The notes: generated by a model from the sequence alone, not told the origin. A stretch of 64,000 bases of DNA from an uncultured Candidatus Saccharibacteria bacterium (GCA_964365955.1 CAYISA010000002.1:23329-87328); one strand, 5' to 3'; shown: positions 1-30,446, counted from the first letter of the stretch. Program-made: numbers and translations.

Positions 1-252
1 CAGATCCGATACATGTCCGAGGATAACCACCGCATTATTCGGAAACTCCGGATTTTCAAAACCAACAGCTACAAGGATATGTACCAGACTATCGGGAGCA
101 AGATTGCAAAAAACGAGGAGGGCGACTCCATCGAATCCGTCTTGATCACCTCAAAAATCATGCTCAATCTCGAGGCAAAACTCGAAACAATGAAAGGATG
201 GGGAGATCGGTACAAAAAAGCGAAGACGGAATTTTCAGCGCATTTCTTTTAG
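1..252 (+). CDS. 3' end of a gene that begins upstream of the window (frame open to position 1); hypothetical protein
   Basis: ORF 13..252 is in frame with position 1 with no upstream stop; no recognisable motif. Confidence 0.3.
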   Translation, partial: QIRYMSEDNHRIIRKLRIFKTNSYKDMYQTIGSKIAKNEEGDSIESVLITSKIMLNLEAKLETMKGWGDRYKKAKTEFSAHFF

Positions 253-281
253 GCACTTCGAAATTTGGAATAGCTAAAGGA

Positions 282-1052
282 TTAGTTGAAGTTAAAGATC
301 AATGGAAGGTGATCTGAAACGGCGACGTTAGGAACTGCGAGCGCTTTAATAATAACATCAGGAGAAACAAGGATGTAATCAGATATTTTATCTTCCTTAG
401 TTTTTAGTAAGCGACTCCGTGTTCGAGAAATATTTTGATTTTTAACAACATTTATCATATCTTCCTCGAGTATTGCTAGACTTCTTGTGTCGGGAGACAA
501 ATTAAAATCCCCGCACAATATTTTAGAATGGTTTATAGTTTTTAAAAATCCAGAAATATTTTCTGATTGTTTAATCCGCGATGCAGAATCAACTTTTGGC
601 CACACCGAAATACCATGAAAGTTAGCGATGGTATATTTTTTTTCCCCAAAAGAAAAGGTTGCGTGCTGTACCATGCTCGGCATTACGCTTGTGTTATTTG
701 ACAGAAAATATCGGTTGCGTTCTCCGTAGGTAAAAAGGCTTCCAAATTTTTCAACATTAATTGATTTCTTTATAAAAATTGCGAGGCCAGAAGATGAAAC
801 TAGTTTGTTCTGACTCGAATAGACATCCTGCATGGTCGTAAAATCACTTCTAAAATCGGGTAGTAAATTTTTGAAAACGGCGTACATATTATATTTATTA
901 TCAAGAAGATCGGCGGTGTTAAAATGTCCAGAGAGCATTTCTTGAAAACAAAAAAAATCCGTCTCTTTGGCGTTTTTTAAAACAAACTCCCTCAATGGCT
1001 CAAATACTTTGCCCAACCAAAGGTTTAAAACAATTAACTGCATTGTATCCAA
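282..1052 (-). CDS. endonuclease/exonuclease/phosphatase (EEP) family protein
   Basis: CGDFNLSPD and C-terminal SDHLPL motifs typical of the EEP fold. Confidence 0.55.
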   Translation of the reverse strand: MDTMQLIVLNLWLGKVFEPLREFVLKNAKETDFFCFQEMLSGHFNTADLLDNKYNMYAVFKNLLPDFRSDFTTMQDVYSSQNKLVSSSGLAIFIKKSINVEKFGSLFTYGERNRYFLSNNTSVMPSMVQHATFSFGEKKYTIANFHGISVWPKVDSASRIKQSENISGFLKTINHSKILCGDFNLSPDTRSLAILEEDMINVVKNQNISRTRSRLLKTKEDKISDYILVSPDVIIKALAVPNVAVSDHLPLIFNFN

Positions 1053-1124
1053 TTTTAAGAAATTACTGTCTTGCTCTTAATCCATCGACACATGTGTTTT
1101 TTTGTTACTTGTACTTTCTAGTAT

Positions 1125-2336
1125 CTAGAAGATTCTTTCAATAGCATCTAAACAAATCTCCTTTGTAAAATGAGTGAGGGCGTATTTTAGGCCGTTTTCT
1201 CCGTAATATTTTAATCTTTCTTTTTCTAGATAGACTTGCTCGGTCAGACGGGTCATTTTTTCTTCATTATCGGAAATGGTGGCCAAGCCGCATTTTGCGT
1301 CATTCACAATTTTTATCCCGTCGCTCTTTTCGTGAAGGAAGGCCAGTACCGGAAGGCCAGCAGCCATATATCCCATAAGTTTTGCCGGAACTGCCGGGGT
1401 GGTGTTGGCACCCGTAAGTGACGCTATCCCCACATCAGCGTCCCTTAGAAGCTGTGGGTAATCCTCTTTTGAAACCGGCGGCTTAAAAATAACATTGTCC
1501 AAACCGAGTGACTGCGCGAGCGCGACTAGTTGATTCTTTTCGGAACCGTCGCCGACAAAAAGAAATGTGATATCTTTATATTTTTTTAATTTTTCTGCGA
1601 TCCGGATGAATATTTCAAGCCCCTGCGAAGGACCGAGGATGCCACCAAAAATGAAAACAAATTTATCGTGAAGCCCGTATAATTTTCTAAACTTCCCGGT
1701 TTGTTTAACTTCTTCAAAAGGTTTTATGTCTATCCAGTGAGGAATAACGCGTATCTTCTGGAGCGGCACCTTATAACGCTCATGCAAAAAATCCTTATGA
1801 GCTTCCGAGGGTGTTACGATTATGTCCGAAATGATATAGGCGCGCTTCTCCATTTTTTGGAAAAACCGGATAAGAAATTTATTCTTTAAAATACCGAGAT
1901 CCACAGCATTTTGCGGAAAGAAATCCTGAAGATTCAAAAAATATTTCGCGCCATAAAATTTTTTGACCCATTGAGCGGTGAGGGCAAGTGGTAGGGGTGG
2001 ACTGTGAACCCATACCGCATCGAGCTTGCCCGTAATGTGCTTTTTAACATGATAAAAAAATAAGTACGGGAGTATCATTTGCGCAATGCCTTTTACGATG
2101 AAATTTACATTATGGTGCCGCAATACGTTTACGCGTATTACGGTAATTCCGTCCTCCCGCATGATACCCCCAGCAACCCGTCGTGTGCCGGATGGAACAT
2201 TCTGCTCTGCAGGGCGTGACGTTACCACAAACACTTCATATCCCCGCTCTTTAAGTCCGTCGGCCATCTCTTTCATTAAATGCGAGGAGGAGCGTGTTTC
2301 TGGCGGATAGGAGTCGGTGACGATTAAAACGCGCAT
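1125..2336 (-). CDS. glycosyltransferase family 4 (GT-B, group 1)
   Basis: N-terminus MRVLIVTDSYPP... and C-terminal GT4 region (GGILGPSQG..., LPVLA). Confidence 0.8.
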   Translation of the reverse strand: MRVLIVTDSYPPETRSSSHLMKEMADGLKERGYEVFVVTSRPAEQNVPSGTRRVAGGIMREDGITVIRVNVLRHHNVNFIVKGIAQMILPYLFFYHVKKHITGKLDAVWVHSPPLPLALTAQWVKKFYGAKYFLNLQDFFPQNAVDLGILKNKFLIRFFQKMEKRAYIISDIIVTPSEAHKDFLHERYKVPLQKIRVIPHWIDIKPFEEVKQTGKFRKLYGLHDKFVFIFGGILGPSQGLEIFIRIAEKLKKYKDITFLFVGDGSEKNQLVALAQSLGLDNVIFKPPVSKEDYPQLLRDADVGIASLTGANTTPAVPAKLMGYMAAGLPVLAFLHEKSDGIKIVNDAKCGLATISDNEEKMTRLTEQVYLEKERLKYYGENGLKYALTHFTKEICLDAIERIF

Positions 2337-2341
2337 ACTAT

Positions 2342-3130
2342 TTATATTCCTGATAATCCGTAGATTTTAGCATCAACCAGAAATCTATACCAAAAACCGT
2401 GTAAAAAATGGAAGATGAATCCGGCTTTACCATCAAGAAAACCGAGCCGGAAAAAATAGCGGTAAATAAAATAACAAAAAACGCGCAAGAACGGCGGAAG
2501 CTGATAGTAAAAATTCCTTTTTTCGCCCATGCCATATTCCCCGGCTTTAACTTCTTCGGCTTCTCGTGAAGCGTAATTTTTGTGTTTTAGGATCCAATTC
2601 TTGAGGTCTTTTTTATTATTATCAATAAAATCGTTGTTTAATCTTCGACTTTCGTCCTCAAGGAGAATGATGTGCTCGTCCATTTTTCTTTCTTCCGACC
2701 GTCCTTTCCCTTTTCGCCAAAGGCGTAAAAACCAGATTGGATAGTATCCACCGTGCTTAATCCACCGGCCCATGAAATAAAATCTGCGTTTCATGTAGAA
2801 GCCCGATATTTCCTTACCTGCCTTCGGCAGGAATTCTAAAATTTCATCCTTGAGTTCCGGCAAAATCTCCTCATCGGCGTCCAATTTCAAAATCCAATCG
2901 CTTGTAATGGCTAAATTATCGAGCCCCCAGTTGAATTGGTCGGCTTGGTTTTTAAAATCATGGGCATAAACTTGGGCGCTATATTTTTTTGCAATTTCTA
3001 AAGTTCTATCGGTACTGTGCGAATCGACGATAAAAATTTCTTGCGCTAAACCAGTAATGCTCTTCAGGCATTTTTCGAGATTTTCTTCTTCATTAAAAGT
3101 CAAAATAATGACTGAAATTGATGACTTCAC
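2342..3130 (-). CDS. glycosyltransferase family 2
   Basis: VIILTFNEEENLEKCL...IFIVDSHSTDRT GT-A signature; DAD-like motif. Confidence 0.8.
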   Translation of the reverse strand: MKSSISVIILTFNEEENLEKCLKSITGLAQEIFIVDSHSTDRTLEIAKKYSAQVYAHDFKNQADQFNWGLDNLAITSDWILKLDADEEILPELKDEILEFLPKAGKEISGFYMKRRFYFMGRWIKHGGYYPIWFLRLWRKGKGRSEERKMDEHIILLEDESRRLNNDFIDNNKKDLKNWILKHKNYASREAEEVKAGEYGMGEKRNFYYQLPPFLRVFCYFIYRYFFRLGFLDGKAGFIFHFLHGFWYRFLVDAKIYGLSGI

Positions 3131-3774
3131 AATTTTTTAGCGAAAACAATCAAATGGGCGCCCAGGGATGGAAAAATATCGCCTAGAATTTCGAAAACTC
3201 TGCCCAATTTATTTCGTCGTGTTGAAAAAAGAATATGTGTGGAAACGAGTTTCAAGACCTTTAAATTTCCTTCTTTGAACATGCTGGCGAGTGTCTTTCT
3301 GTTATACATATGGTAGTGATAGGGAGCGTAAGCAAAATACTTAGGCACCTGTCCGAACAACATCAAAAAACGGTTGGGGCCAAAAACTAAATTGGGCACG
3401 GTGATTATTAAAATGCCATCCGGCCTAAGCGCTTCGCGGCAATGCTGCAAAAAAGCGGAGTCGTCAAACAAATGCTCCATTACTTCGCCCGCAAAAATTA
3501 TGTCGAACTTAACGCCGAAATCAGGAATACCTTTATTTAAATCTGACTGGATTATCTTTATGCCGTTAATCTCTCTGGGGTTAACATCAACGCCAAAACA
3601 TCGCACCCCTTCCTTTTTCAGCATATCGGCAAGCCCCCCCTTCGCCACGCCACATTCAAGGAGATTAAGATTTCGCAAATCCTTAAAATATTCGGTGATA
3701 AAATTATACGCTTTTTTGATCCTTATCGGATCTGGAACCTCGAAATGCTCAAAAACTTCCTGTTTTTTGTCCAT
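3127..3774 (-). CDS. class I SAM-dependent methyltransferase
   Basis: LLECGVAKGG...GVDVNPREI motif I/II; 4-nt overlap with the neighbouring gene. Confidence 0.75.
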   Translation of the reverse strand: MDKKQEVFEHFEVPDPIRIKKAYNFITEYFKDLRNLNLLECGVAKGGLADMLKKEGVRCFGVDVNPREINGIKIIQSDLNKGIPDFGVKFDIIFAGEVMEHLFDDSAFLQHCREALRPDGILIITVPNLVFGPNRFLMLFGQVPKYFAYAPYHYHMYNRKTLASMFKEGNLKVLKLVSTHILFSTRRNKLGRVFEILGDIFPSLGAHLIVFAKKL

Positions 3775-3918
3775 AACTTTTGATTAAATCATTATAAACT
3801 TGAATCCATTTTTTCGCTATTTCCCGACTTAACTTTCAAGATGTTCTTCTCAATAAGGATGTTCAAGATCAAGCCCTGTCTTTTTGGATGCTTTGATACA
3901 GCACCTCGCGACAATCAT

Positions 3919-4883
3919 CTATAAGATTTTTTGTATATAAAGAGAGGAGGGAAAGTGCCGACCCTCAATGTTTCCACTCCTCAGTCCAAAATCATTCTCC
4001 TGTGGCTTATAACCAGAAAGGAGTTTCTCGAATTCACTGGGGACTGCGTAATGTAGCATACTTAATGACGTGCGTATGACATAGTGTGCGTTCCCGATTA
4101 AAAACGCGTGCAGCAATACACTCTCATTAGAGAAAAAGAGACCGTCTGACATTAAAGCTCTTTTATAATCATACGGGAAATAAATGTCGTGGAAATGCAC
4201 ATAAACACCTTTCGCAAGACGCGATAGCACTTCCAAAATAATGAGATTTACTTCGCTACCAGGTTTCACAGTATGGGTAGAATCAATAAACAAAAGGTCC
4301 CCTTCTCCTAGAGTAAGATATACATCCAAAGGAACACTCTGTGTTTTCTCCTGGTGCAAGGAAATGATATTTTTTTCGCGATCTCCCGCAAAAACTGCGT
4401 AGGATATGGATCAATGCAAATAATATCGCATTTAAAATCGAACTTTTTCATCGCTTGAAGCATCACCGCGGTGGAAAGTCCCGCTCCGACCTGAATAACC
4501 TTGTGGGGGCGTGCAAAACCGAGAAAACAAAATAGAAAATCGGACTCTACCGGACCAAAGCCTGCATCTCCGTTCATACGACAAGCCTCAAGAAAAACAT
4601 TTTCTTCGGACAACATCTGTGCCTTCCCGTTGCAACAACTTTTCGCAAAATCTAGTTGGGCATCCATGTCAGACCCCAGCACACCCACCATTGTACGTGG
4701 ATTCTTCCACGTCGATTCTTGTTTAAGTTCACGAATATCGGGTATTTCAGAATAAAAATGGCGAGGTAATATATCGAATCCTAAATATTGGGCCGCTTCA
4801 AAAAATTTCCTGAGTCCTTTTTTTAACCCCTCCTTAAGGGCTCTTTTACTTTTCTTCATAAGAAATTGTCCTTGTGTGTGCAC
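3919..4883 (-). pseudogene. class I SAM-dependent methyltransferase split into two frames by a frameshift at an A7/T7 homopolymer (4370-4376)
   Basis: ORFs 4308..4883 and 3919..4359 overlap in different frames. Adding one A to the coding-strand A7 tract fuses them into one ~320-aa protein (...REIAKKNIISLHQEKTQ...LLFIDSTHT...). VIQVGAGLSTAV is MTase motif I. Confidence 0.5.
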
Positions 4884-6043
4884 TTACTATATTCTTCTAT
4901 AAATCTTTCGGCAATTTTATTATAAGAATATTTCATCGCGACAAGTGCACGTCCCCGCTCTCCCATCTTTTTGCCTTCCACCGGGTCACCGAGTATTTTC
5001 AAAATTGCATCTGCAAGAGCCCTGTCGTCTTTAGGGACCACAAGCCCCGCTTTCGCCTCCAAAACGTCGGAACCAATCGCGACGCCCTCTGTCACAACCA
5101 CGGGGACACTCGCCGCCATTGCTTGCCCAAGTGCTACACCAAAATTTTCAGAATAAGAACCGAGTACAAACACGTCCGTATCGACGAATGCTTCTGCGCG
5201 TTCTATTCCCTCCAATGGTCCGGTGAATAGAATACTCGTCTCAAGCTGGTATTTCGCAATAAGTTGCATAATTGTCGCTTTATATCCTTCATCCGACCAT
5301 ACTGCGATAACGAGTATTGCACCGGGGTTCTTTTCGTGTACACGCCCAAAGGCGGGAATGAGTGTATCAAAACCTTTTTTCCATCCAATCCTGCCATGAT
5401 ACAGAATCACTTCCCTCTCTGGAGATATACCAAGTCGCTTCTTAAACCTTCCTGCGGAAACAACCTTTTTTTTATCAACATCAATGCCGTTCGGAATCAC
5501 AATACTGCGCTTGATTGGAAAGTTCTTTGTCCTGTACTCTTTCTCTTCCTTGGGGGCTGTAAAATGAATTGCCGAAGCATTCTTAAGATTATTTTTCTCA
5601 ATAAACTTGAGGTAGAACGTTTTCTTTAGCGAGCTCTTTTTTGTTAATGGATCAATCATTAAGCTTCCACGCGGAGAGATAATATAAGGCTTTCCACATT
5701 TCTTAGCATAATATGCGCCCAAAGTAGATGCGGCCAGAAATACCGAGGTGACATGAACTATGTCAAACTCTTTACAGTGTTCTCTTAGGGCTTTGTGCAT
5801 CGTCCGAGAATAAAACCAAGATCGCGGGAATGAGATCGGAAAGTACACAACCTTTACGCCGTCCTGTTCTACCGGCGTCTCCAGGGGCACGTCGAGCGTG
5901 CCTCTGCCATCGGCGTTCGTGGCATAAACCGTAACGTCGACACCCGCTCGTACAAGCCATTTATTGAGTGTATGAACGCTTGAGATCGGTCCGCCATAGC
6001 GGTAGGCCGGAGTATACGCCGGGGTTATATGGAGAATTTTCAT
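4856..6043 (-). CDS. glycosyltransferase family 4
   Basis: MKILHITPAYTPAYRYGGP... and C-terminal EGFGVALGQAMAASVPVV motif. Confidence 0.8.
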   Translation of the reverse strand: MKILHITPAYTPAYRYGGPISSVHTLNKWLVRAGVDVTVYATNADGRGTLDVPLETPVEQDGVKVVYFPISFPRSWFYSRTMHKALREHCKEFDIVHVTSVFLAASTLGAYYAKKCGKPYIISPRGSLMIDPLTKKSSLKKTFYLKFIEKNNLKNASAIHFTAPKEEKEYRTKNFPIKRSIVIPNGIDVDKKKVVSAGRFKKRLGISPEREVILYHGRIGWKKGFDTLIPAFGRVHEKNPGAILVIAVWSDEGYKATIMQLIAKYQLETSILFTGPLEGIERAEAFVDTDVFVLGSYSENFGVALGQAMAASVPVVVTEGVAIGSDVLEAKAGLVVPKDDRALADAILKILGDPVEGKKMGERGRALVAMKYSYNKIAERFIEEYSKCTHKDNFL

Positions 6044-6090
6044 TACAAAATGATTTTAACAGCATCTGATGAGTTCGCAATGCGGTGCTC

Positions 6091-6813
6091 CTAATCCATT
6101 TTATTTTTCGACAGATGACGTTCTACTTCCCGATACTTATCCATCGTGTCGATTCCTTTGGAATATTCATCACATTCATAACCGTAGAAATTCTTCCCTT
6201 TTCTGACGATTTCCGGCAAAAGTTCTTTACCGATTTCGTAAGAAATGCCTAGCGGCACAAAATTCAAGATTTCCTTTTTGAGAATAAAAACACCTCGCAT
6301 CCTGTACGCGTTCGGATATTTTTCGGTGTGAGGCTTCGGATGGATCTTCATAAACCGACCGTTCTGATTGAGCTCGGCAATGTCTGCATCCGCGTAATCA
6401 CCTGTCTTTCCCACGCGCTGGATGCCAATAGGATCTTTAAGCTTATCAAAAAAATCGGCCATTGTCGTATAATCAACCAAACTTATCATATCGCCATAGA
6501 TCAGAAAGAACTCGACATCTAATTTGTTTTCAAATTGTTTCACGCCGCCTGCAGTCCCCAAGATGGCGGACTCGAAAACGTAGTTGATTTTAACGCCAAA
6601 CTTGGAGCCGTCTCCAAAATAATTCCGAATCACATCCGGCAAATAATGGAGATTTATGAAAAATTCCGTAACCCCGTGCTTTTTGAACTGCTCGATGTTC
6701 CACTCGAGCATCGGCTTCCCTAAAAGTGGAATCATTGGCTTCGGGATAGTATCGGTAAGTGGCCTTAACCTTGTGCCCAAGCCCGCAGAGAGAATAACGG
6801 CTTGTTTTAACAT
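6091..6813 (-). CDS. hddC: sugar-phosphate nucleotidyltransferase, probably D-glycero-alpha-D-manno-heptose 1-phosphate guanylyltransferase (HddC-like)
   Basis: AVILSAGLGTRLRPLT...KPM nucleotidyltransferase signature; sits next to gmhB, gmhA and hddA. Confidence 0.65.
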   Translation of the reverse strand: MLKQAVILSAGLGTRLRPLTDTIPKPMIPLLGKPMLEWNIEQFKKHGVTEFFINLHYLPDVIRNYFGDGSKFGVKINYVFESAILGTAGGVKQFENKLDVEFFLIYGDMISLVDYTTMADFFDKLKDPIGIQRVGKTGDYADADIAELNQNGRFMKIHPKPHTEKYPNAYRMRGVFILKKEILNFVPLGISYEIGKELLPEIVRKGKNFYGYECDEYSKGIDTMDKYREVERHLSKNKMD

Positions 6814-7409
6814 TTATTTTTTATTATTTTTACTGCTTCGATCAAATTTTTCGCCTTAAAATCCGGTCGTACTTTATTTTCATAGATTCTATCTAACCGG
6901 GAATGACCCGGCCCAGTCTTAACCAGAATCGTCTTTAATCCCGCCCGTTTCCCGGAAACAACGTCGATAACAGAATCTCCAATCATAAAGCTCTTTCGGG
7001 GGTCAATGTTAAATTTTTTAATAGCTTGTTTTAACATTCCGGGGCTCGGTTTCCTGCAAAAACAAACTACCCGATATTTTTTTAATGTCGCTTCCGGATG
7101 ATGTGGGCAAAAATAGAATGCATCGATATGGGCCTTTGAACGCTTGAATCTTTTAATTAAGATTTCATGAAGATCGTCGATGCCTTTTGGTGTAATTAAA
7201 CCGCGGGCCACTACCGGCTGATTTGTCACTACAATCACTAAGAAACCGAGCTTGTTAAACTTGTTTATCGTCTCTGCGGCACGTGGAAGCAGGCGTAATT
7301 GCGAGGGCTTCGTTACTAAATCTTCAAACTTGATGATGGTGCCGTCGCGATCAAGGAAAATCGCTCTACGCAATTTTTGTTTTTTGAACCGATTCCCATT
7401 TTCCTTCAT
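6807..7409 (-). CDS. gmhB: D,D-heptose 1,7-bisphosphate phosphatase (HAD-IIIA, GmhB-like)
   Basis: AIFLDRDGTI, VVTNQPVVARG, CPHHPE...CFCRKP zinc-binding loop; start moved to Met10 of the ORF. Confidence 0.7.
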   Translation of the reverse strand: MKENGNRFKKQKLRRAIFLDRDGTIIKFEDLVTKPSQLRLLPRAAETINKFNKLGFLVIVVTNQPVVARGLITPKGIDDLHEILIKRFKRSKAHIDAFYFCPHHPEATLKKYRVVCFCRKPSPGMLKQAIKKFNIDPRKSFMIGDSVIDVVSGKRAGLKTILVKTGPGHSRLDRIYENKVRPDFKAKNLIEAVKIIKNKC

Positions 7410-7983
7410 TGGTTCTGAATTTTGGATGTGAAACAATCAAATGCCACAGCACCGCCTGGAAAGATTCGGTATGAGGAGTGACGTTCTCGACGTTTACCAC
7501 GGGCACCACAACACAGGCATCAGCAACGGTCTTAGTATACCCCCCGTCGCGCCCTACAATGCCTACCACTTTTGCGCCAATTGATTTCGCAAGTTTCAAA
7601 GACTCCACAATGTTCATGCTAACGTTTTTTTCGGCATTGCCTCCGCCGACAGAAAATACCATAAGCGCGTCCCTAATATTCAATTTGCTTCCTAAAAGCC
7701 AGTTGGCAAAAACCGTGTGCCATCCATCATCGTTTACCCGGGCCGTGAGCTCCGAGACATTATCGGTGGGTGTGTACGTCTCAATGCCCGTAAGTTTTCT
7801 GAAGTCATTTACCGCATGGCTTGCATGCCCCGCTCCGCCACCAACGCCAATGATAAAAAGCCGTCCACCGCCAGTTCGCACATTGTTTAAAATCTCTATC
7901 ATTTTATTCAAAGGTTCGCGGTCAATTTTTTCCGCAATTTCCTTCACTTCATCTAAATAAGATTTTATGTAGTCGTAGTACAT
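7366..7983 (-). CDS. gmhA: phosphoheptose isomerase (SIS domain, GmhA-like)
   Basis: SIS motif GGRLFIIGVGGGAGHASHAVND; pathway context. Confidence 0.7.
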   Translation of the reverse strand: MYYDYIKSYLDEVKEIAEKIDREPLNKMIEILNNVRTGGGRLFIIGVGGGAGHASHAVNDFRKLTGIETYTPTDNVSELTARVNDDGWHTVFANWLLGSKLNIRDALMVFSVGGGNAEKNVSMNIVESLKLAKSIGAKVVGIVGRDGGYTKTVADACVVVPVVNVENVTPHTESFQAVLWHLIVSHPKFRTNEGKWESVQKTKIA

Positions 7984-7998
7984 TTCAAATTTCTCTAG

Positions 7999-8745: not shown

Positions 8746-8763
8746 AAATTAAAAGAAGTCAAC

Positions 8764-9789: not shown

Positions 9790-9793
9790 AATT

Positions 9794-10621: not shown

Positions 10622-10622
10622 C

Positions 10623-11609: not shown

Positions 11610-11678
11610 CTTATTTACTTCTACTTAATAAGCTACAACGAAAACAACTAAATGTAAAATGGGGCGCGGTGGAAACAA

Positions 11679-12464: not shown

Positions 12465-12496
12465 AAAATGATTGTAGATTGAGATTAAAACTGTCT

Positions 12497-13420: not shown

Positions 13421-13435
13421 ATAAGTTCTTTAATT

Positions 13436-22157: not shown

Positions 22158-23426
22158 TTATCTCCGGGTGGTATGAAAAAGATAAGAAGCGATATTTTGC
22201 GAATACGCTTCCCACGTGAATTTATTAAGGGTCCGCTCTGCCTCGGCAACAAGAATTGATTCGGTATTCAAAGCATGCTCTATAACGCGAGCCATAGAAA
22301 CTGGATCGGGATTCGCCTCAAAAAGCATCTTGCCTTTGAGTTCGCCCAAATCTCCCGAAAGGTCATAGTCGGTCGAGCAAATAACCTTTTTCCTTAAAGA
22401 GAGGCCTTCCATCACAGTAAGATCAAAGTCGATCCAGGCAGGATGGAATATTGCCGCAGCACTTGCGTAGAGATCCAGTAAATCCTCCTCCGCAACAAAA
22501 CCAGCAAGTACTGCATGACTTTCTACACGTAGTTCTTTAATAAGTGCTTCCAGATTTTTATCCTCCGGACCTCTGCCTCCCACTACAAAATAAATATCAT
22601 TTCTTTTCTTTTTTAGCTCTGCTATGGTCCGAATGCAAAGATCAATGCGTTTCCCGGGAATCAATCGGCTTATATCAACAAGTATCTTAGCGTCAGGAGG
22701 AAAACCATATTTTGCTCGCATGTCTTTTTTTGATTTGTAATTAAAAAAAGACGGGTTCACACCACTTTTTATATCAATTACAGGGCGACTATAAAATTGC
22801 TCATTCTCCCAAGCCATCCTCCGAGTCATAGAAAAAGCGTAGGCAGCGCGACGCACTACAAAATAATTCATCCAAGCGCGGCACTGCAACGCCAATCTAG
22901 CAAAAAATCCCCTAACCGGATTTTCCAGTGGAATAAAAGCCTGATGTCCGGAAATCGAATTTCTTACTTTGGTAAACACTCGATTAAAGGGTGCCATATA
23001 TTTCAATCCGTCTTCTGGAAAATTAAAAAATGAAGCGTAGAGAAATGTAGCGTAAGGAATTCTCATCCCCAGAGAAGCTAAATAAAGTAACTCTGCGTCC
23101 GCGGGATTCTGTCCTAATAAAATATCTGGTCGAAATATTTTTATCTCCTTCCGGAGTCTACCAACACTCGAGAGAGAAATCCAAATCTTCCAGAATATAT
23201 GAGTTGGATAATTACCTTCATGAAAGCTGGCAATAGGGACATCTGCGTAAGCACCGTCAAAAAGCGAAACAGTATTTTTGCCCTTTACCGAAACCACGCG
23301 TACTTCATAACCGAATTTTATAAACCACTTAGCGATTTCAAGCATCAACCGCTCAGCACCACCTTCGTGTGCAAGAGTTTTCCTAAACAAAAGTATTCTT
23401 TTCTTTTCAATCATATACGCGCGCAA
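22158..23426 (-). CDS. glycosyltransferase family 4
   Basis: C-terminal GT4 fold (FHPAWIDFDLTVMEG...). Confidence 0.7.
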   Translation of the reverse strand: MRAYMIEKKRILLFRKTLAHEGGAERLMLEIAKWFIKFGYEVRVVSVKGKNTVSLFDGAYADVPIASFHEGNYPTHIFWKIWISLSSVGRLRKEIKIFRPDILLGQNPADAELLYLASLGMRIPYATFLYASFFNFPEDGLKYMAPFNRVFTKVRNSISGHQAFIPLENPVRGFFARLALQCRAWMNYFVVRRAAYAFSMTRRMAWENEQFYSRPVIDIKSGVNPSFFNYKSKKDMRAKYGFPPDAKILVDISRLIPGKRIDLCIRTIAELKKKRNDIYFVVGGRGPEDKNLEALIKELRVESHAVLAGFVAEEDLLDLYASAAAIFHPAWIDFDLTVMEGLSLRKKVICSTDYDLSGDLGELKGKMLFEANPDPVSMARVIEHALNTESILVAEAERTLNKFTWEAYSQNIASYLFHTTRR

Positions 23427-23463: not shown

Positions 23464-24483
23464 CTAGTGTATTTCGGAAATATTTACTACACGTTTCTCT
23501 GCGTTTGATATTCTTGCGGCTTCAAGAATACGCGCTTGAGCCAAAAGATCATCTTCATAATCCTTCGTGCTTGCTTGACCCACAAAAATTTCTTTACAAA
23601 AATCGTCCACCATTAATTTAAAATGGTCGATCGGCGGGAATCCAATTTCCTCAACCCTATCGTTAGAATCAAGAAAAATTTTTGTTCCCATGTCACTTGG
23701 GACAGCATATGCTCGCCCCATTCTTATATGAGCCTTAGTACCCAAAACACTGTAGGTTGATTGAAAGTAAGAACCAAAGAATGAAGTAGTTGAGGCTGTT
23801 CGTCCCTCGGAATATTCCAGAAGTACGGTTGCGCCTATATCAACACCACTCTTCGGATCGATTTCCAATCGACAAAAAACACTGACCGGCTCTTCACCAA
23901 AAACCATCCGACTTGCAGAGACCGGATATACCGCACATGAGTTCAAAGATCCTCCCTCTAAATCTTTCTTCATCGCAATATCTGTTTCCTCAGGCATGGT
24001 AAAACCAAGACAACCATCAAATTTGGTAAGCCTCCCTAGAGTTCCTTGTTCTATCAATTCTTTTACTTTTATTTGTTGGGGGTGATAACGAAACATCAAG
24101 CCCTCAAGAAGCCGAACTTTGTTTTTTTTTGCAGCACCAACCATTCGCTTTGCTGCCGCATAAGAAATAGCGGCTGGTTTTTCGCAAATTACATGCTTTC
24201 CGGCCTCAAGTGCTTTCACAGTCCACTCTTCGTGAAGAGAGTTGGGAAGAGAAATATAAACCGCTTGAATATCCTTATTTTCTAAAACTTCTTCATATGT
24301 TCCCCACTTGTCCGCACCGAATTGCGCTGCGACTTCTTTTGCTTTTTCAGAGTTCCTACTTCCCACCATGCTAAGCTCGGAATATTCCGAACTTCCTATT
24401 GCGGAAAGCATCCTCTTCAGGGCAATACGTGATAAACCAATGACGCCAAATTTAACTTTAGAATTTTGTTTTTTTGTAGTCAT
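23464..24483 (-). CDS. Gfo/Idh/MocA family oxidoreductase (WbpB-like)
   Basis: KFGVIGLSRIALKR, CEKP motif. Confidence 0.8.
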   Translation of the reverse strand: MTTKKQNSKVKFGVIGLSRIALKRMLSAIGSSEYSELSMVGSRNSEKAKEVAAQFGADKWGTYEEVLENKDIQAVYISLPNSLHEEWTVKALEAGKHVICEKPAAISYAAAKRMVGAAKKNKVRLLEGLMFRYHPQQIKVKELIEQGTLGRLTKFDGCLGFTMPEETDIAMKKDLEGGSLNSCAVYPVSASRMVFGEEPVSVFCRLEIDPKSGVDIGATVLLEYSEGRTASTTSFFGSYFQSTYSVLGTKAHIRMGRAYAVPSDMGTKIFLDSNDRVEEIGFPPIDHFKLMVDDFCKEIFVGQASTKDYEDDLLAQARILEAARISNAEKRVVNISEIH

Positions 24484-24498: not shown

Positions 24499-25230
24499 TC
24501 AGGATTTTTTTGCTATAACGATAACATTTTGTGTAAAAACTCCTACCCCACTCCCGGCTTCAACTAGACGGTACAAACGAAGGCGAAGCTCAATACAAAA
24601 CCATAAAATAAGCCGAAGGAAAGAGATGGGTCCATGAGCCGTCGGCCGGACTGAAAAGACCTGCACTGCATCAAAGCCATATGCCAAAAGTATCTGTTTT
24701 AAACTTGAGCCAGTAAAACTTGTATCGTGTGTAAAGTCACCATAGCGGAGACGGCCACTCATCGGACTTTCGGCATTCGGAGTTTTTATAATAAGGGTTC
24801 CACCTTTTTTTAATGACTCAAAAATTAATTCCATAATTTCTAAAACTTCAGCTTTTTCAAAGTGACCCAAGACATCCCGTATAAAAATCAGATCAAAAAA
24901 ATTCTTTCGAGTTTTCAAAAAATTGCTCAGATCGTCCTTCTCAATTCCAGAGATACCAATTTTTTTACCCAACTCAATCTGCTCAGAACTCACATCAACC
25001 CCCACAGCATTTTTATAATCCAAGGACCTTAACCAATAAACAAAACCACCGTTGCCACATCCCAGATCAACAATATTCGCATCGGTATTCCCCGTCAAAA
25101 ATCCGGAATAATAATTATTCCAAGCAGTAAACTGGTTTTTAATAATTTCCAAGCTAGTGTCCCCATAAAGATTGTGATTGTGCTGGGAAACGTACTTTGA
25201 ATAAAATTTTTCTTTGTAATTACTCTCCAT
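24499..25230 (-). CDS. class I SAM-dependent methyltransferase
   Basis: IVDLGCGNGGFV motif I. Confidence 0.75.
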   Translation of the reverse strand: MESNYKEKFYSKYVSQHNHNLYGDTSLEIIKNQFTAWNNYYSGFLTGNTDANIVDLGCGNGGFVYWLRSLDYKNAVGVDVSSEQIELGKKIGISGIEKDDLSNFLKTRKNFFDLIFIRDVLGHFEKAEVLEIMELIFESLKKGGTLIIKTPNAESPMSGRLRYGDFTHDTSFTGSSLKQILLAYGFDAVQVFSVRPTAHGPISFLRLILWFCIELRLRLYRLVEAGSGVGVFTQNVIVIAKKS

Positions 25231-25233
25231 GAT

Positions 25234-26400
25234 TTAAGAAAGGGACTGAAGAACTGCTTTTAAAGTACGGACAACATAACTTTTTTCTTCATCGGTTAAA
25301 ATCGGGCCACTGGGAATATAAAATCCATTTAGGCCAAGATTGTTTGCAACCGGGCAGTCCTCTGGCTTCGCCAATCCTTTCTTAATGAAAATGTCTTGCA
25401 TATTGTACGGAATAAAATCTTCTCGAACTTCGATTCCCTGCCTTAATAATTCTTTAAGAACAGCTGACCTCTTCCCATGGGCGCTTCCACGAAGGATTAC
25501 ATTAAACATCCAGTACACATTCTTGGCATACGGTTTTTCTACAGGAAGCTGAAGTTGCTCTACATCCGCAAGTTCTTTTAAATAAAAGGAGGCGAGTTCT
25601 CGTTTTTTTTGAATGATAAAATCAATTTTTTTAAGCTGAGCCAACCCTAGCGCCGCCTGCAAATTCGTAAGCCGATAATTAAAACCAATCTCCTGATGCA
25701 TGAATTTGTTTTCTTTTCCAAACGCAAGCGCCTTTAGCATCCGCGCTCTTTCTGCAAGCTCCTTGTTATTGGTTGTGATCATTCCACCTTCACCAGTCGT
25801 GATTATTTTATTCGCATAAAAACTAAAACAACCAATATCACCCAAGGAACCGACTTTTCTCCCTTTGTATTCTGTGCCATGCGCTTCAGCACAATCTTCA
25901 ATTACATACAGGTTATGTTTTTTTGCAATCGCTAAAATTGGATCCATATCAACCGGGTGCCCGTAAATATGAACAACCATAATCGCCTTAGTTTTTGGCG
26001 TTATCTTTGCCTCAATCAAATTTGGATCAATGTTCCATGTGTCCGGTTCACTATCGATCGGAATGGGCCTTGCTCCTTGGTAATGGACAGCAAAGAAAGT
26101 GGCCATATTCGTAAAGCTCTGCACAAGCACATCATCACCCGCACCGATCTTCAGGGCCGCAAGTGCCAGATGAAGCGCCGTCGTCCCGTTTGATACAGTT
26201 ACTGCATGCTCAACCCCACAATAGCGCGCGAAGCCGGTTTCAAAGTCTGTTATATAGTTTCCGGAAAACCCAGAAAGCTCTCCTTTGTTTAGAGCGTCAT
26301 TTACAAACTTTTTTTCTTCTTCTCCAATAACCGGCTGGGAAACAGGGATTTTCATAAGAATTACAGGTGTAATTATGACGAAGTGGTGCAAAAAATACAA
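25234..26400 (-). CDS. DegT/DnrJ/EryC1/StrS family PLP-dependent sugar aminotransferase (WbpE-like)
   Basis: Characteristic SFxxxK lysine region (SFYANKIITTGEGG) and N-terminal cofactor-binding region. Confidence 0.85.
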   Translation of the reverse strand: MYFLHHFVIITPVILMKIPVSQPVIGEEEKKFVNDALNKGELSGFSGNYITDFETGFARYCGVEHAVTVSNGTTALHLALAALKIGAGDDVLVQSFTNMATFFAVHYQGARPIPIDSEPDTWNIDPNLIEAKITPKTKAIMVVHIYGHPVDMDPILAIAKKHNLYVIEDCAEAHGTEYKGRKVGSLGDIGCFSFYANKIITTGEGGMITTNNKELAERARMLKALAFGKENKFMHQEIGFNYRLTNLQAALGLAQLKKIDFIIQKKRELASFYLKELADVEQLQLPVEKPYAKNVYWMFNVILRGSAHGKRSAVLKELLRQGIEVREDFIPYNMQDIFIKKGLAKPEDCPVANNLGLNGFYIPSGPILTDEEKSYVVRTLKAVLQSLS

Positions 26401-26401
26401 A

Positions 26402-26430: not shown

Positions 26431-26458
26431 CCCCCGCCTCTACCTTGAGCTTTGTAAC

Positions 26459-27166
26459 TCAATCTCTCGCGAACTCCACCGGATATGGCACGAGACCTTC
26501 CTTGCGCCGCTGTTCCACAATCTTTTCGAGGAACGCTCTAAGTTCGGCCACATACTCCGTAATCATCCACTTCGCCTTCTCAGTCCGCACCGCGAATCGC
26601 GCATTCTCGGGAGAATTAAAATCTCCCCAGTCCAGGCAATCACGGAGAGCGTCCATAACCGTCGGACGACTATTGTAGCGCCCGACTTTCTCGCCGCTCA
26701 AAAGTCGAACGGGATCAAGCACTAGTTGTTCTGAATGAAACTGCGCCGAGCGAATTATGACATCGAGTCGCGTGTTTACAACCCGATCGGCGTCCTTCAA
26801 GGCAATCGTAACAGCATCATCTGACTCTTCGTTCGGTCTGCCATGATTCAAAACCGCTCGAGCAATGATCTGTTTTTCCTCTTCGGAGAGATTCGGTTCT
26901 GTATCAAGCCAGCTCCTTACTAGCACTTCGACATCTGCGGCGGGAACTTCTCCACGCGGCTTGCCTAAGTCTATCGCAATCATGCGATCAGCATTATGAC
27001 AAATACCAGCGACCCAAGCTTGACCAGAAGAATCCGACCAAAACGTTTGAGCAAGTTGTGCCACAGCAAAAGCATGATCGAAATCATGTCCATGGGCCAT
27101 CTTTCGGCTCACGTGTGCTTTTCTCACAATTTTTGTGAGATTCGGAAACACAGTCCATAAATGCAT
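26459..27166 (-). CDS. HD-domain-like phosphohydrolase (hypothetical)
   Basis: HGHDFDH ... CHNADR ... DADR motifs; visibly higher GC than its neighbours. Confidence 0.45.
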   Translation of the reverse strand: MHLWTVFPNLTKIVRKAHVSRKMAHGHDFDHAFAVAQLAQTFWSDSSGQAWVAGICHNADRMIAIDLGKPRGEVPAADVEVLVRSWLDTEPNLSEEEKQIIARAVLNHGRPNEESDDAVTIALKDADRVVNTRLDVIIRSAQFHSEQLVLDPVRLLSGEKVGRYNSRPTVMDALRDCLDWGDFNSPENARFAVRTEKAKWMITEYVAELRAFLEKIVEQRRKEGLVPYPVEFARD

Positions 27167-27303
27167 CTGAAACTCCTTTCGTAGAGTTATTTGCTATACG
27201 TTATTTTTAAGCTTCTAGTAAGACAATAACATACTATATATTTCTTTGTCAATACTACGTAATGGTTCAATAGCTTGGAATACCCCTCGGGGCCATTCAA
27301 GCT

Positions 27304-27657
27304 ATGTACATGGCATATTCTAACAATCCCCATCTGCCTCGTGTCCGACGGGAAGCGGTGCAGCTTGTTCGTGCAGGATGGAGCACCGTGAAGGTTGCTC
27401 GACATTTGGGATATTCCCAGAGTGCCGTTGTGAAGTGGGCGCAGCGTGCTCCGGAGGATGGGAGAAAAATCATTCCTACGCTCTCATCCCGCCCTCTTCA
27501 TCATCCGAACGAACTTTCGGATACGGTGGTGTTCCGCATCTTGGAACTTCGGAGAGAACGGAACCAATGCGCGGAGATTCTGCAGTATCGGCTGCAGAGA
27601 GAAGGAATCGCAGTATCTCTCTCTTCGGTAAAACGAACTCTCCGCAGACATCAATAG
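27304..27657 (+). mobile_element. truncated IS481-family transposase N-terminal HTH fragment (no DDE core)
   Basis: GWS..KVAR.LGYS...V.KW..R......SSRP.HHP......ILELRRER....I...L.REGI.VS.SSV.R.LRRH matches the IS481 transposase N-terminus; ORF stops before the integrase core; high-GC patch. Confidence 0.55.
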
Positions 27658-27663
27658 AACCCT

Positions 27664-28743
27664 TCACCTTATCTTGAGCTCGTGCTCCATCATTATGGAC
27701 ACAAGATCGTCAAATTTTATTTTCGGCTCCCAACCAAGTTTGGTTTTAGCTTTTGTATAATCACCCAGGAGATCGTGGACTTCTGATGGACGAAAGAAAT
27801 CCGGATCAATTTCCAATAGTACCGCCCCCGTTTTTTTATCAAACCCCTTTTCATCAATGCCCTTGCCGCGCCACTCTATATCAATTCCCACGTGTTTAAA
27901 GGATTTTTCAACAAATTCACGCACGGAGTGACTTTCTCCTGTTGCAATAACGTAATCATCTGGCTCCGACTGTTGTAGCATAAGCCACATCGCCTCTACA
28001 TATTCGGGAGCGTATCCCCAATCTCTTTTTGCATCTAAATTACCAAGATGTAGTTTTGGATGAAGTCCCTTCTTAATACCCACAACGCCTTTTGCAATTT
28101 TCCGTGTTACAAAATTAATTCCCCGCCTAGGTGATTCATGGTTAAAAAGAATGCCATTTGCTGCAAATATGTTATAAGCTTCGCGATAATTCCTTACTAC
28201 ATTGAATGCAAACACCTTGGCGCATCCATAAGGACTTCTTGGATGAAAAGGGGTTAGCTCATGTTGTGGAGCAGGAGCAGCGCCAAACATCTCTGAACTT
28301 GCCGCTTGGTAAAATTTAATTTTATGCCCCGGATTACGCGCTTCAAACTCTTTAATAAGCTCAAGGAGTCTTAACACACCAAGACCCGTAACATTCGCAG
28401 TATATTCGGGAATATCAAAACTAATTCGCACGTGGGATTGAGCGCCTAAGTTATAAATTTCGTCCGGAGGGAAGTCGAATTTATGGAGCCCATATCTTCC
28501 GTATGCGTCATGCGAACCAAATATAAACCTGGAAAGACTATGCGTATCTGAGAGATCGCCATAATCTCTAAAGAGGACCGCTCCTTTGTTATGTAAGTCT
28601 TTAAGGATATGGTCAATACGCTCCGTATTCGGAGAAGAAGAACGGCGAACAACTCCCATGACTTTATAGCCTTTTTCCAATAATAACTCAGCGAGGTATG
28701 AACCGTCTTGGCCCGTTATGCCCGTAATAAGCGCGCTTTTCAT
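27664..28743 (-). CDS. gmd: GDP-sugar 4,6-dehydratase (Gmd family; possibly GDP-heptose 4,6-dehydratase)
   Basis: [26 protein letters not shown]...VHG; start set at the MKSALITG Met. Confidence 0.85.
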
Positions 28744-28828
28744 GATTAACAAATGATAAGAAAAATAAGGCCGATGGTCAAGTTTATGCGTTGACTGATA
28801 AGGTTTATTTTGCTTACATGTATATGCT

Positions 28829-30061
28829 ATGGCGCATATTACGAAATGCAGATTTTGCAACAAAACGACCCTAGAGCCCTACCTTGACCTAGGTTTTACG
28901 CCTCATGCCGATCGATTCCCAACGTTGGAACAGCTCGAAAAGCCGGAACTATACCACCCCCTAAAAGTAATGATGTGTAAAAACTGCGGACTGCATCAAT
29001 TAAGCTACACAGTAGATCCAAAATTCCTTTACCAAGAGGATTATTTGTACGAATCGTCCATAACAAAAACCGGAGTTAGTCACTACCATAGTTTTGCCGA
29101 GTCGGTCACAAAGAAATTTGATCTTACAAAAAAAGACCTTGTGGTTGATGTGGGCTCAAACGTCGGGGTTCTCCTTAAGGGATTCAAAAACCAGGACGTA
29201 AAAATTCTTGGCGTTGATCCGGCAAAAAACATTGCGGCGATCGCGAATAAGAACGGCATACGGACCATTCCAGATTTTTTCGTTTCGCACGTTGCGCAGA
29301 CGGCGCGGAAAAAATACGGCCCCGCCAAAATCATTGTCGGCACGAATGTTTTTGCCCATATTTTTGACCACCACATTTTTATGAAAGCGGTAAAAATCCT
29401 TCTCGCAAAAGACGGGGTGTTTATCTTTGAATCCCCCCATCTTTCGCACCTCATACAAAACCTCGAATACGACACAATCTACCATCAGCACCTCCTCTAT
29501 CTATCATTAAAACCCGTGGTGCAATTTTTCAAAAGCCATGGAATGGAGGTATTTGATGTGGAAACATACCCCATTCACGGTGGCTCGTTTAGGGTATTTA
29601 TCGGTAACCGAGATGTCCACAAAGTCCAACTATCGGTGGCGCGGATGCTAAAAAGCGAAAAGAAAGGCGGAATTTATTTTATTCCGAAATTGAAAAAATT
29701 CGGAAAAAAAGTTCATCAGCACCGGCAAAAACTTATGAATTTATTGACGGATTTAAAGCGTCGTGGGAAAAAAATCGCCATTGTAAGCACCCCTGCCAAA
29801 GGAATGACCTTGTTAAATTTTTGCCGGATAGGTCCGGAACACGTTGAGTTTGCAACGGAAAAATCAAAATTAAAAATAGGTCGTTTTACTTCGGGAACGC
29901 ACATCCCGATTTTCCCCGATTCCGAATTATTGAAACGGAAACCCGATTATGCTCTGCTTCTGGCCTGGAATTTTGCGCCGGAGATTATGCGGGGACTAAG
30001 CGAGTACAAAAAGAAAGGTGGTAAATTTATCATCCCGATTCCTAAACCAAAAATAGTATAA
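28829..30061 (+). CDS. NDP-sugar C-methyltransferase (TylCIII-like; zinc ribbon + SAM MTase + C-methyltransferase C-terminal domain)
   Basis: CRFCNK...CKNCGLHQ zinc ribbon, [10 protein letters not shown] motif I, C-terminal domain characteristic of sugar C-MTs. Confidence 0.7.
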
Positions 30062-30068
30062 TTGAATT

Positions 30069-30446
30069 ATGCAAGTAGAAAAAAAGCCCATTAACTTCGA
30101 GGATGCGCGCGGCACTATCCGCGATATTCTGATTGGCGTAGATGTTGATGCAGTCACTATTATCACCTGTGCAAAAAATTCCGTCCGGGGAAATCACTTC
30201 CATAAAAAGACGACGCAAAACACTTATGTGGTAAGCGGCAAATTAATTTATGCAACCCAACAAGACGACGGACCGATCGAAACCAAAACTGTTGAAACAG
30301 GAGATATCACCATAGATATTCCAGGATCAAGGCATGCCTTCAAAGCGCTTAAAGATTCGGTTATCCTACAGATGTCAAAAGGCCCCCGCCAGGGGAAGGA
30401 ATACGAATCAGACACTTTTCGTTTAGAAAAACCGATTCTTTCATAA
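30069..30446 (+). CDS. cupin-fold sugar ketoisomerase/epimerase (FdtA/WxcM-like)
   Basis: INFEDARGTIRDI...RGNHFHKK pattern similar to FdtA/WxcM C-terminal domain. Confidence 0.55.
   Translation: MQVEKKPINFEDARGTIRDILIGVDVDAVTIITCAKNSVRGNHFHKKTTQNTYVVSGKLIYATQQDDGPIETKTVETGDITIDIPGSRHAFKALKDSVILQMSKGPRQGKEYESDTFRLEKPILS

Follow-up and report, generated by a model that had tools for sequence, protein, structure and literature searches.

A probable Wzx/Wzy_C-type surface-glycan locus with an AT-rich variable centre in a groundwater Paceibacteria bacterium

The AT-rich left half of a 64,000-nucleotide stretch of DNA (CAYISA010000002.1:23329-87328, here called the window, with positions counted from its first letter) is best explained, with a probability of roughly 0.65, as the variable centre of a surface-glycan locus of the Wzx/Wzy_C type. 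The variable block covers 253-30497, almost the same coordinates as the 1-30446 delimited in an earlier note on this DNA; the functional locus measures ~37 kb, or ~40 kb if the gene for a 1111-aa surface protein is included. In the favoured model, a phosphoglycosyltransferase and eight glycosyltransferases would build up an oligosaccharide on undecaprenyl phosphate; its decoration would fall to as many as six intact methyltransferases, and Wzx would flip it. A pair formed by a Wzy_C-family protein and a TPR-like protein would then transfer the oligosaccharide, most likely to Ser/Thr residues of the adjacent surface protein; this last step, modelled on known systems, is the least certain one.

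The block stands out by its composition. The guanine plus cytosine (GC) content is 41.8% in 1-30446 vs 49.1% in 30447-64000, and a single change point, sought in 100-bp bins, is best placed near position 30700, i.e., at ~30.7 kb (t = -14.4, p ~4e-41). Thus, the impression that this half is more AT-rich than 30.5-64 kb, gained by eye in the earlier note, was correct, and the sliding GC profile is not uniform. Third codon positions follow the same trend (GC3 of 0.33-0.51 in the genes of the block and 0.47-0.59 in those to its right), and the genes of the left flank beyond the window are host-like, with a GC of 0.45-0.53. The lowest GC in the block, 0.35, belongs to the first variable gene, encoding an Exo_endo_phos family protein (282-1052, minus strand; PF03372, 37 bits), for which no homologue was found in the related loci compared. 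Tight packing was likewise confirmed, with a coding fraction of 96% and most intergenic gaps <50 nt, as was the location of nearly all genes on one strand (28 of 32 on the minus strand). Only the statement that 4-nt overlaps occur "often" was generous, since GTGA/ATGA overlaps exist at three junctions.

Taken alone, a GC step of this kind could indicate a chimera of assembly or binning in which the AT-rich half stems from another organism. This explanation is refuted. Contigs from five or more assemblies of the Hainich groundwater well H43 (0.1- and 0.2-µm fractions) carry the locus and match the window at 100% identity over the shared parts (99.95% in one case). Among them, L007 covers window positions 1-12336 and runs 8.9 kb further left, L001 and L002 cover 26952-42598, and these independent assemblies together cross both block borders with 100% identity; moreover, the order flank-cassette-flank recurs on single contigs of relatives. 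Both L001 and L002 start exactly at window position 42598, just beyond the SIMPL gene; that both assemblies break at this point suggests a repeat, or variation within the population. The proteins of the locus are named "Patescibacteria group bacterium" at NCBI, and the best match of ClpB among species-representative genomes (75%) is in a metagenome-assembled genome of Ca. Jorgensenbacteria, all close matches being Paceibacteria/Parcubacteria. Judged from these protein matches, the host is a Paceibacteria bacterium (Patescibacteria, or Candidate Phyla Radiation, CPR) from the Hainich groundwater.

The right end of the block is a hairpin at 30447-30497, between the convergent genes for a small cupin and the TPR-like protein. 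This hairpin is perfect and AT-flanked, as is a second one at 32495-32524 between the Wzy_C and surface-protein genes; both could act as bidirectional terminators and delimit transcription units at the border. Direct repeats of at least 11 nt were not found at the block ends, nor is there a tRNA gene at the borders. The nearest tRNA gene lies at 49 kb, and five of them (His, Phe, Arg-TCT, Pro-TGG, and Gly-TCC) are dispersed over 49257-57907 in the right half of the window. Among the open reading frames (ORFs) of the block we found no integrase or recombinase, only a helix-turn-helix (HTH) fragment. The latter is the insertion sequence (IS) relic described before, a 117-aa ORF (27304-27657, plus strand) that matches solely HTH_23, HTH_32, and HTH_29 in Pfam and has no catalytic domain; it reads as a transposase N-terminus and directly abuts the stop codon of the gene for GMD, a GDP-mannose 4,6-dehydratase.

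Evidence for a variable locus comes from the comparison with relatives. We compared 24 metagenome loci anchored on a 540-aa Gfo/Idh/MocA-domain (Gfo) protein, the gene of which ends at the left border of the block, and sampled 10 kb to either side. In one of the two closest relatives, L093, the nucleotide identity is 83.5% over 30533-36658 and the homology stops exactly at 30533, coinciding with the GC change point; beyond it lies an AsnB-type amidotransferase gene. Such a glutamine amidotransferase gene directly follows the Wzy_C/TPR pair in both closest relatives (11948-13771 in L091 and 6232-6512 in L093) and has no counterpart in the window. The closest relative with a long contig, SRR14825528_38912 (ClpB 85%, surface protein 68%), has both flanks on one contig, and between them a different cassette of 17.2 kb with a GC of 0.463 vs 0.505 in the flanks. 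It encodes five GT4/GT1-type and three GT2 glycosyltransferases, AsnB, a NUDIX protein, two GMD/epimerase-type short-chain dehydrogenases/reductases (SDRs), DegT, two class I methyltransferases, and a C-methyltransferase that is only 29% identical to the one in the window, and it contains no heptose genes. In another locus, L092, Wzy_C is 60% identical, and the genes beside Wzy_C/TPR encode an FkbM/RfbT-like protein, DUF268, two class I methyltransferases, GT11, GT2, an amine oxidase, and PMT_2. These alternative cassettes substantiate the earlier description of a variable glycan locus; an empty site was not present in any relative compared.

All eight glycosyltransferases of the block are encoded on the minus strand, and four of them form a conserved core: GT4_a (1125-2336), GT2_a (2342-3130), GT4_b (4856-6043), and GT4_c (14193-15359). 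Together with the phosphoglycosyltransferase and Wzx they are kept in most lineages among the 24 loci, at 35-76% identity, and the orthologues of the four adjoin the same flank genes in ~20 related Paceibacteria contigs (40-76% for GT4_a and GT2_a, 35-63% for GT4_b, ~50% for GT4_c). SRR14825528_38912 shares all four, and also the class I methyltransferase MT4 (13436-14191, minus strand), at 43-64%. In L094 (8695-9909) and L095 (8690-9907), GT4_a is located between Wzx and the 540-aa gene; the window and several further loci have it beyond that gene, a small rearrangement in the conserved flank.

The remaining content is distributed differently. DegT, Gfo2, MT6, MT1, MT4, GMD, and the C-methyltransferase occur sporadically among the 24 loci, with identities in some relatives of 63-68% for DegT, 63-64% for Gfo2, and 43% for MT6; L121 has a homologue of MT1 (65%) in the corresponding position, and MT4 is 50-52% identical in two relatives. 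GT4_d (15369-16559) shares 45% identity with a GT4 of L091. In the 24 loci, over the 10 kb sampled to either side of the anchor, neither GT4_d, GT2_b (16560-17696), the nucleotide-sugar dehydrogenase, GT4_e (22158-23426), and the cupin nor the heptose set were seen, save for weak matches of 25-34% to three heptose genes in four loci. The eighth glycosyltransferase is GT2_c (21175-22104). A segment of 8 kb, 6091-14191, with the heptose genes, Gfo1, the SDR, FkbM, an extended SDR, and MT4, separates GT4_b from GT4_c, two genes that are neighbours in a relative. By these comparisons, the site of the locus and its four core glycosyltransferases are ancestral to the lineage, the rest being a mosaic of modules gained and lost one by one, as exemplified by 6091-14191. 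Conservation in relatives therefore holds for the site and a part of the content, not for the other cassette genes, which differ from relative to relative.

Following the earlier note, the block could be taken for a single ~30-kb island recently acquired by horizontal transfer. The 7-point drop in GC with its sharp right boundary, the IS fragment together with a frameshifted methyltransferase, and a content unlike that of the relatives all agree with such an event. However, the core glycosyltransferases are orthologous across ~20 relatives with a divergence equal to that of the flanks, alternative cassettes occupy the same site and are likewise below their flanks in GC, the borders offer no integrase, tRNA, or repeat, and clusters of this type are generally low in GC (PMC2943079). 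Because the ancestral core glycosyltransferases inside the block (GC 0.39-0.46) are as AT-rich as the lineage-specific genes and the cassette of the relative is low in GC as well, we regard low GC as a standing property of such loci and not as evidence of recent transfer. A single recent acquisition is largely refuted and improbable.

The machinery that gives the locus its type lies in the flanks. The gene of the 540-aa protein extends over L007 12085-13707 and window positions 1-252 (plus strand, placed by mapping L007 onto the window; GC ~0.53). It is the best conserved gene of the locus, more than 100 Paceibacteria proteins being 60-81% identical to its product; in the AlphaFold2 model (predicted local distance difference test, pLDDT, 83.7) its C-terminal ~330 residues adopt the Gfo/Idh/MocA fold, and the N-terminal domain of ~200 residues had no match in a PDB search. 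To the left of it on L007 follow Wzx (491 aa, PF01943/PF13440, 35-54% identity in relatives) and, adjoining it, the initiating phosphoglycosyltransferase (442 aa, Bac_transf PF02397), 4.2 kb left of position 1; farther out on this contig come DsbA, glutaredoxin, and thioredoxin reductase. The right flank contains, in this order, the genes of the 195-aa TPR-like protein (30498-31085), the Wzy_C-family membrane protein (31063-32493; PF04932, 69 bits vs a cut-off of 31.7), the secreted surface protein of 1111 aa (32553-35888) with an N-terminal PG_binding_1 domain, a 250-aa ORF, and ClpB, the first three on the minus strand. The synteny SIMPL-HtrA-ClpB-orf250-surface protein-Wzy_C-TPR was found again in several Paceibacteria genomes. 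The 250-aa ORF (36258-37010, minus strand) shares 59 nt with the 3′ end of clpB and is without a Pfam match; relatives have it at the same position, with 28-83% identity.

At the domain level the TPR-like ORF gave only weak TPR matches (E ~1e-3). Residues 447-639 of P0058, one of the fused Wzy_C-TPR proteins of related CPR bacteria, can be aligned with it at 39% identity (E = 1e-50). This alignment points to a split-off C-terminal domain of a Wzy_C-TPR fusion, and the pair is a candidate oligosaccharyltransferase or ligase. The surface protein, of which 24.7% of the residues are Ser or Thr and which adjoins Wzy_C in many relatives, is the candidate glycan acceptor. The clpB gene is flanked by two different secreted PG_binding_1 proteins, at 39767-40387 (plus strand) and 32553-35888 (minus strand), in keeping with a surface proteome that is anchored in the wall and has no SLH domains.

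The same genes could instead make a polymeric polysaccharide linked to the wall or to a lipid (capsule, secondary cell-wall polymer, or O-antigen-like), with Wzy_C as its polymerase or ligase and the surface protein merely syntenic. Wzx, Wzy_C, and an initiating phosphoglycosyltransferase make up the classical polymer pathway, the source annotation of the Wzy_C protein is "O-antigen ligase family protein", and a surface protein with a peptidoglycan-binding domain has no need of a glycan anchor. Yet, the scan of ORFs, which ran from the left flank as far as ClpB, revealed neither a Wzz-type chain-length regulator nor a second Wzy-like multi-pass protein, the presence of eight glycosyltransferases points to a long oligosaccharide without repeats, and Wzy_C with TPR beside a Ser/Thr-rich surface protein resembles known O-oligosaccharyltransferases (PMC2943079). 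We consider the polymer possible, though the less likely outcome. Because no Wzz and no second Wzy-like protein were found, an absence that in the case of Wzz is compatible with transfer of the oligosaccharide en bloc, and by analogy with those systems, we favour en-bloc O-glycosylation of the surface protein, at about even odds for a locus of this type, over a lipid- or wall-linked polymer, which retains a smaller but substantial chance.

Within the block, gene families were assigned by Pfam and enzyme names by NCBIfam scans against equivalog or subfamily cut-offs. The inventory of the earlier note (GT4, GT2, Gfo, SDRs, dehydrogenase, DegT, GMD, cupin, and seven methyltransferases) was confirmed by Pfam throughout, and its list can be extended by an NTP-transferase, GmhB-like and GmhA-like proteins, a transaldolase, an HddA-like kinase, the Exo_endo_phos protein, and an HD-like ORF. 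Matches above the NCBIfam cut-offs were restricted to GMD, the transaldolase, the subfamily of the nucleotide-sugar dehydrogenase, the FkbM domain, and generic HAD-IIIA/histidinol-phosphatase models in the case of the GmhB-like protein.

One of the seven methyltransferase genes, MT2, is frameshifted. Besides MT4, the plain class I enzymes are MT1 (3127-3774; Methyltransf_23, 65.7 bits) and MT6 (24499-25230), and MT5 (17693-18685; Methyltransf_23, 78 bits) combines the class I domain with an N-terminal zinc ribbon, read as CxxC...CxxC in the translation, and a hydrophobic C-terminus. The FkbM-family enzyme (11679-12464) scored 54 bits with TIGR01444 against a cut-off of 37.7. MT2, of the Methyltransf_24 family, spans 3919-4883 in two ORFs (3919-4359 and 4308-4883). 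All of these are on the minus strand. The homopolymer frameshift reported before was verified in MT2 as a -1 shift in an A7 run at 4370-4376 on the minus strand; adding one A yields an ORF of 313 aa with a full-length Methyltransf_24 match of 47.7 bits vs 26.6 for the fragment. Phase variation at this tract was considered and is unsupported, because the A7 run is short and the frameshift is fixed, being the same in all independent assemblies.

The seventh gene (28829-30061, plus strand) encodes an NDP-hexose 3-C-methyltransferase of the TylCIII/TcaB9/MtmC family with the three-part architecture Methyltransf_13 + 23 + 14, i.e., a Zn-binding N-domain (PF08421, 67 bits), a class I S-adenosylmethionine (SAM) domain (PF13489, 48 bits), and Methyltransf_14 (PF08484, 171 bits). 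It matches MtmC in the PDB over its full length (4rv9, E = 2.4e-86, residues 4-410), followed by KijD1 (5t64, E = 4e-73) and TcaB9 (3ndi, E ~1e-68), and on this sequence evidence is a bona fide full-length member of the sugar 3-C-methyltransferase family. That these best solved homologues come from antibiotic pathways, and that FkbM and DegT are present as well, could point to a cluster for a glycosylated natural product (secondary metabolite), TylCIII-type, DegT, FkbM, and methyltransferase genes being typical of macrolide and aminoglycoside deoxysugar pathways. Such a cluster is very unlikely here: no polyketide synthase, nonribosomal peptide synthetase, terpene, or aglycone genes occur within 40 kb, the block is bracketed by the polyprenyl-phosphate glycosyltransferase, Wzx, and Wzy_C, and it contains eight glycosyltransferases of the GT2/GT4 type.

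Only the C-methyltransferase and the FkbM-family enzyme, two of the seven, belong to sugar-linked families by profile search; the other five are generic class I enzymes, one of them a pseudogene. In PDB sequence searches, MT5 (17693), MT4 (13436), MT6 (24499), the FkbM enzyme, and the repaired Methyltransf_24 protein matched generic or non-sugar methyltransferases or nothing, and therefore their substrates are not assignable. A poly-O/C-methylated glycan, as proposed from the number of these genes, is accordingly plausible but mostly inferred. Seven methyltransferases are a high number by enterobacterial standards. The relatives have three in 17 kb or three to four in 9.4 kb (one an uncharacterised DUF268 gene), a comparison by which seven are ordinary for this lineage. 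The number called unusual in the earlier note is thus high against classical O-antigen loci, but not for these bacteria.

The remaining enzymes can be grouped into predicted sugar modules. All four families of a heptose-type set (SIS_2, GHMP kinase, HAD-IIIA, and NTP_transferase) cluster in 6091-11609 on the minus strand: the HddC-like NTP-transferase (6091-6813), the HAD-IIIA phosphatase (6807-7436), the SIS isomerase (7366-7983), the transaldolase (7999-8745), and the GHMP kinase (10623-11609). The best NCBIfam matches were HddA for the kinase, GmhB for the phosphatase, and GmhA for the isomerase; for the NTP-transferase the top match was mannose-1-phosphate guanylyltransferase, with HddC in fifth place. 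We suggest that the set works like the GmhA/HddA/GmhB/HddC route, a likeness in function for which family membership is not claimed. The transaldolase and these four enzymes would make an NDP- (probably GDP-) glycero-manno-heptose, which the neighbouring Gfo, SDR, extended SDR (12497-13420, minus strand), FkbM enzyme, and class I methyltransferase may tailor. Within the heptose block, Gfo1 (8764-9789) and the classical SDR (9794-10621), both on the minus strand and below the NCBIfam cut-offs, form a putative sugar-tailoring redox pair.

A second module is predicted at the right end of the block, where GMD (27664-28743, minus strand; TIGR01472, 508 bits vs a cut-off of 415; PF16363, 443 bits) and the C-methyltransferase are encoded divergently with a spacer of 85 bp, followed by the small cupin (30069-30446, plus strand). 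The cupin gave weak Pfam matches, and PF05523 is present in only some of its homologues. Its AlphaFold2 model (pLDDT 96.6) has a cupin fold, for which the top Foldseek matches were the cupin domain of CapF, the 3,4-ketoisomerases FdtD, QdtA, and FdtA (TM 0.73-0.78, root-mean-square deviation 2.2-2.8 Å), RmlC/StrM, and the GDP-heptose epimerases MlghB/Cj1430. The residues H43-x-H45, Q50, and H89 are invariant. From the modelled structure it is a probable NDP-keto-sugar isomerase or epimerase. GMD would make a GDP-4-keto-6-deoxy sugar that the TylCIII-type enzyme would C-methylate at C3; isomerisation or epimerisation by the cupin and reduction by an extended SDR could then lead to a branched 6-deoxy-3-C-methyl sugar, virenose- or evalose-like.

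A third module comprises the tight trio Gfo2 (23464-24483), MT6, and DegT (25234-26400; 401 bits), all on the minus strand. Together with the nucleotide-sugar dehydrogenase (18783-20132, plus strand; TIGR03026, 358 bits vs a cut-off of 190), for which the best equivalog match, below cut-off, was UDP-ManNAc dehydrogenase, these genes suggest an amino and/or uronic sugar. Since the locus is without an acyltransferase, MT6, which is located between Gfo2 and DegT, may N-methylate the amino sugar. Next to this trio lies the HD-like ORF (26459-27166, minus strand), where the HD domain was matched at E = 0.009 only. It is the exception in GC among the genes of the block (GC3 0.475, with a host-like overall GC of 0.50) and has a promoter-like site at 27252-27223 and a strong terminator at 26441-26416. 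A homologue stands beside those of DegT and MT6 in L127, and the ORF may be a member of the amino-sugar module. The second extended SDR is encoded at 20145-21143 on the minus strand.

Several points weigh against this scheme. The heptose enzymes score below their equivalog cut-offs (46 of 209 bits for GmhA, 174.6 of 600 for HddA with NF049969, 146 of 178 for GmhB, and 82 of 300 for HddC), and therefore the nucleotide and the sugar of this module are not established. Solved enzymes of the TylCIII family use TDP-sugars, not GDP-sugars. The sequence profile of the cupin is closer to metal cupins of the oxalate-decarboxylase type (E ~1e-15 against the PDB) than to FdtA or QdtA (8e-3 and 1e-3, with WxcM-like at 1e-4), and for five methyltransferases NCBIfam and PDB sequence searches returned no substrate-informative match. 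As to the transfer step, a Wzy_C domain alone cannot separate polymerase, ligase, and O-oligosaccharyltransferase, a PDB sequence search with Wzy_C gave no match to any solved structure, and it is conjectural that the 1111-aa protein is glycosylated or forms an S-layer.

Among known systems, the S-layer glycosylation (slg) clusters of Bacillales, as in Geobacillus stearothermophilus NRS 2004/3a, Paenibacillus alvei, and Aneurinibacillus thermoaerophilus, are the closest analogue. Their O-oligosaccharyltransferases WsaB and WsfB carry Wzy_C; a C-terminal TPR is fused in WsfB and in PglL, and WsaB is accompanied by a separate TPR protein of 168 aa, WsaA (PMC2943079). In Geobacillus the S-layer gene adjoins the slg cluster, and in P. 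alvei the AsnB (asparagine-synthase) homologue wsfA lies within it; O-methyl caps, overlapping genes, and transposases have been described, and the G+C content of slg genes, 30-43%, falls short of the genomic mean and reaches its minimum in the strain-specific centre (PMC2943079). The locus in the window is similar in its contiguous genes for NDP-sugar synthesis, glycosyl transfer, export, and final transfer, in the Wzy_C transferase with a TPR part (fused or as a separate small ORF) and the adjoining surface-protein gene, in its predicted methylated sugars, low G+C centre, overlapping genes, and transposase remnant, and, in the relatives L091 and L093 only, in the AsnB homologue beside the transferase, which mirrors wsfA. 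The GDP-glycero-manno-heptose pathway of A. thermoaerophilus resembles the heptose module, and the host, like those of the slg clusters, is presumably monoderm, as we assume for Patescibacteria. The window locus differs in belonging to another phylum (CPR), in having Wzx where G. stearothermophilus uses the ABC exporter Wzm/Wzt, a candidate acceptor with a PG_binding_1 anchor instead of SLH domains, seven methyltransferases vs one domain in WsaE, and a module for a C-methyl branched sugar but no rml genes.

Islands for O-antigens, capsules, or "glycotypes", such as the O-chain clusters of Pelagibacterales (PMC11898729) and the enterobacterial O-antigen loci, share with the window locus a fixed site with conserved flanks, replacement of cassettes between close relatives, low GC, and a Wzx/Wzy machinery. 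In contrast to them, the host, if monoderm as assumed, probably lacks a lipid A-core acceptor, four glycosyltransferases are conserved class-wide instead of being strain-specific, and the Hainich population is clonal at this locus in all assemblies. For the O-antigen of Coxiella burnetii, a route from GDP-mannose via GMD and TylCIII-type methylation has been proposed for virenose, in silico only (PMC3539893). The window likewise has GMD beside a TylCIII-type 3-C-methyltransferase and a predicted finishing epimerase/reductase step, but with a small cupin in place of the GMER-type epimerase/reductase and without an identifiable GDP-mannose pyrophosphorylase apart from the HddC-like enzyme. The capsule heptose loci of Campylobacter jejuni combine GDP-heptose, a 4,6-dehydratase, the C3/C5 epimerases MlghB/Cj1430, reductases, O-methyl groups, and phase-variable homopolymers. 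Parallels in the window are the GDP-heptose-type set of four enzymes, the GMD-like dehydratase, SDR reductases, and methyltransferases, a cupin fold that matches MlghB/Cj1430 among others, and a tailoring methyltransferase that is off at a homopolymer; the differences are ABC/Kps export in a diderm, low sequence identities, and a homopolymer here of only A7, fixed in all assemblies.

An AT-rich composition, closely packed and overlapping genes, an IS remnant, and a decayed gene are documented hallmarks of O-antigen, capsule (cps), and slg clusters, and in kind this is a standard low-GC variable glycan cluster. We found nothing specific in the literature on a glycan, O-antigen-ligase, or heptose locus of Patescibacteria or Parcubacteria, and neither glycosyltransferases nor methyltransferases are mentioned in the paper on the Hainich CPR bacteria. 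New here are the host, the scale, a class-wide conserved CPR glycan site, and the slg-like arrangement of Wzy_C/TPR and surface protein; a GDP-sugar C-methylation step may be another novelty.

CPR genomes are typically small, around 1 Mb, and these bacteria depend on other cells. Against this background, ~37-40 kb devoted to one surface glycan, including its own transaldolase and heptose-nucleotide pathway, is a large share of a probably tiny genome. The conserved site and the core of four glycosyltransferases with differing cassettes provide a ready marker of strain-level surface diversity in Paceibacteria, and the locus is a candidate for determining host or phage specificity in bacteria of which hardly any have been cultured. 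Two sets of proteins offer themselves as testable targets, namely Wzy_C/TPR together with the 1111-aa protein, and the trio of GMD, C-methyltransferase, and cupin. Tentatively, and with the odds rather against it, Paceibacteria may possess a class-wide, slg-like system of general O-glycosylation in which Wzy_C/TPR puts a long oligosaccharide with swappable modules on a giant peptidoglycan-anchored protein. If so, the GMD/TylCIII pair would be a real case of GDP-sugar C-methylation, hitherto an in silico proposal only, and the strain-specific identity of the surface would depend on the swappable modules (a methylated heptose, a GDP-derived branched 6-deoxy sugar with a 3-C-methyl group, and an N-methylated amino sugar), which in an episymbiotic way of life may help to attach to hosts or to escape phages.

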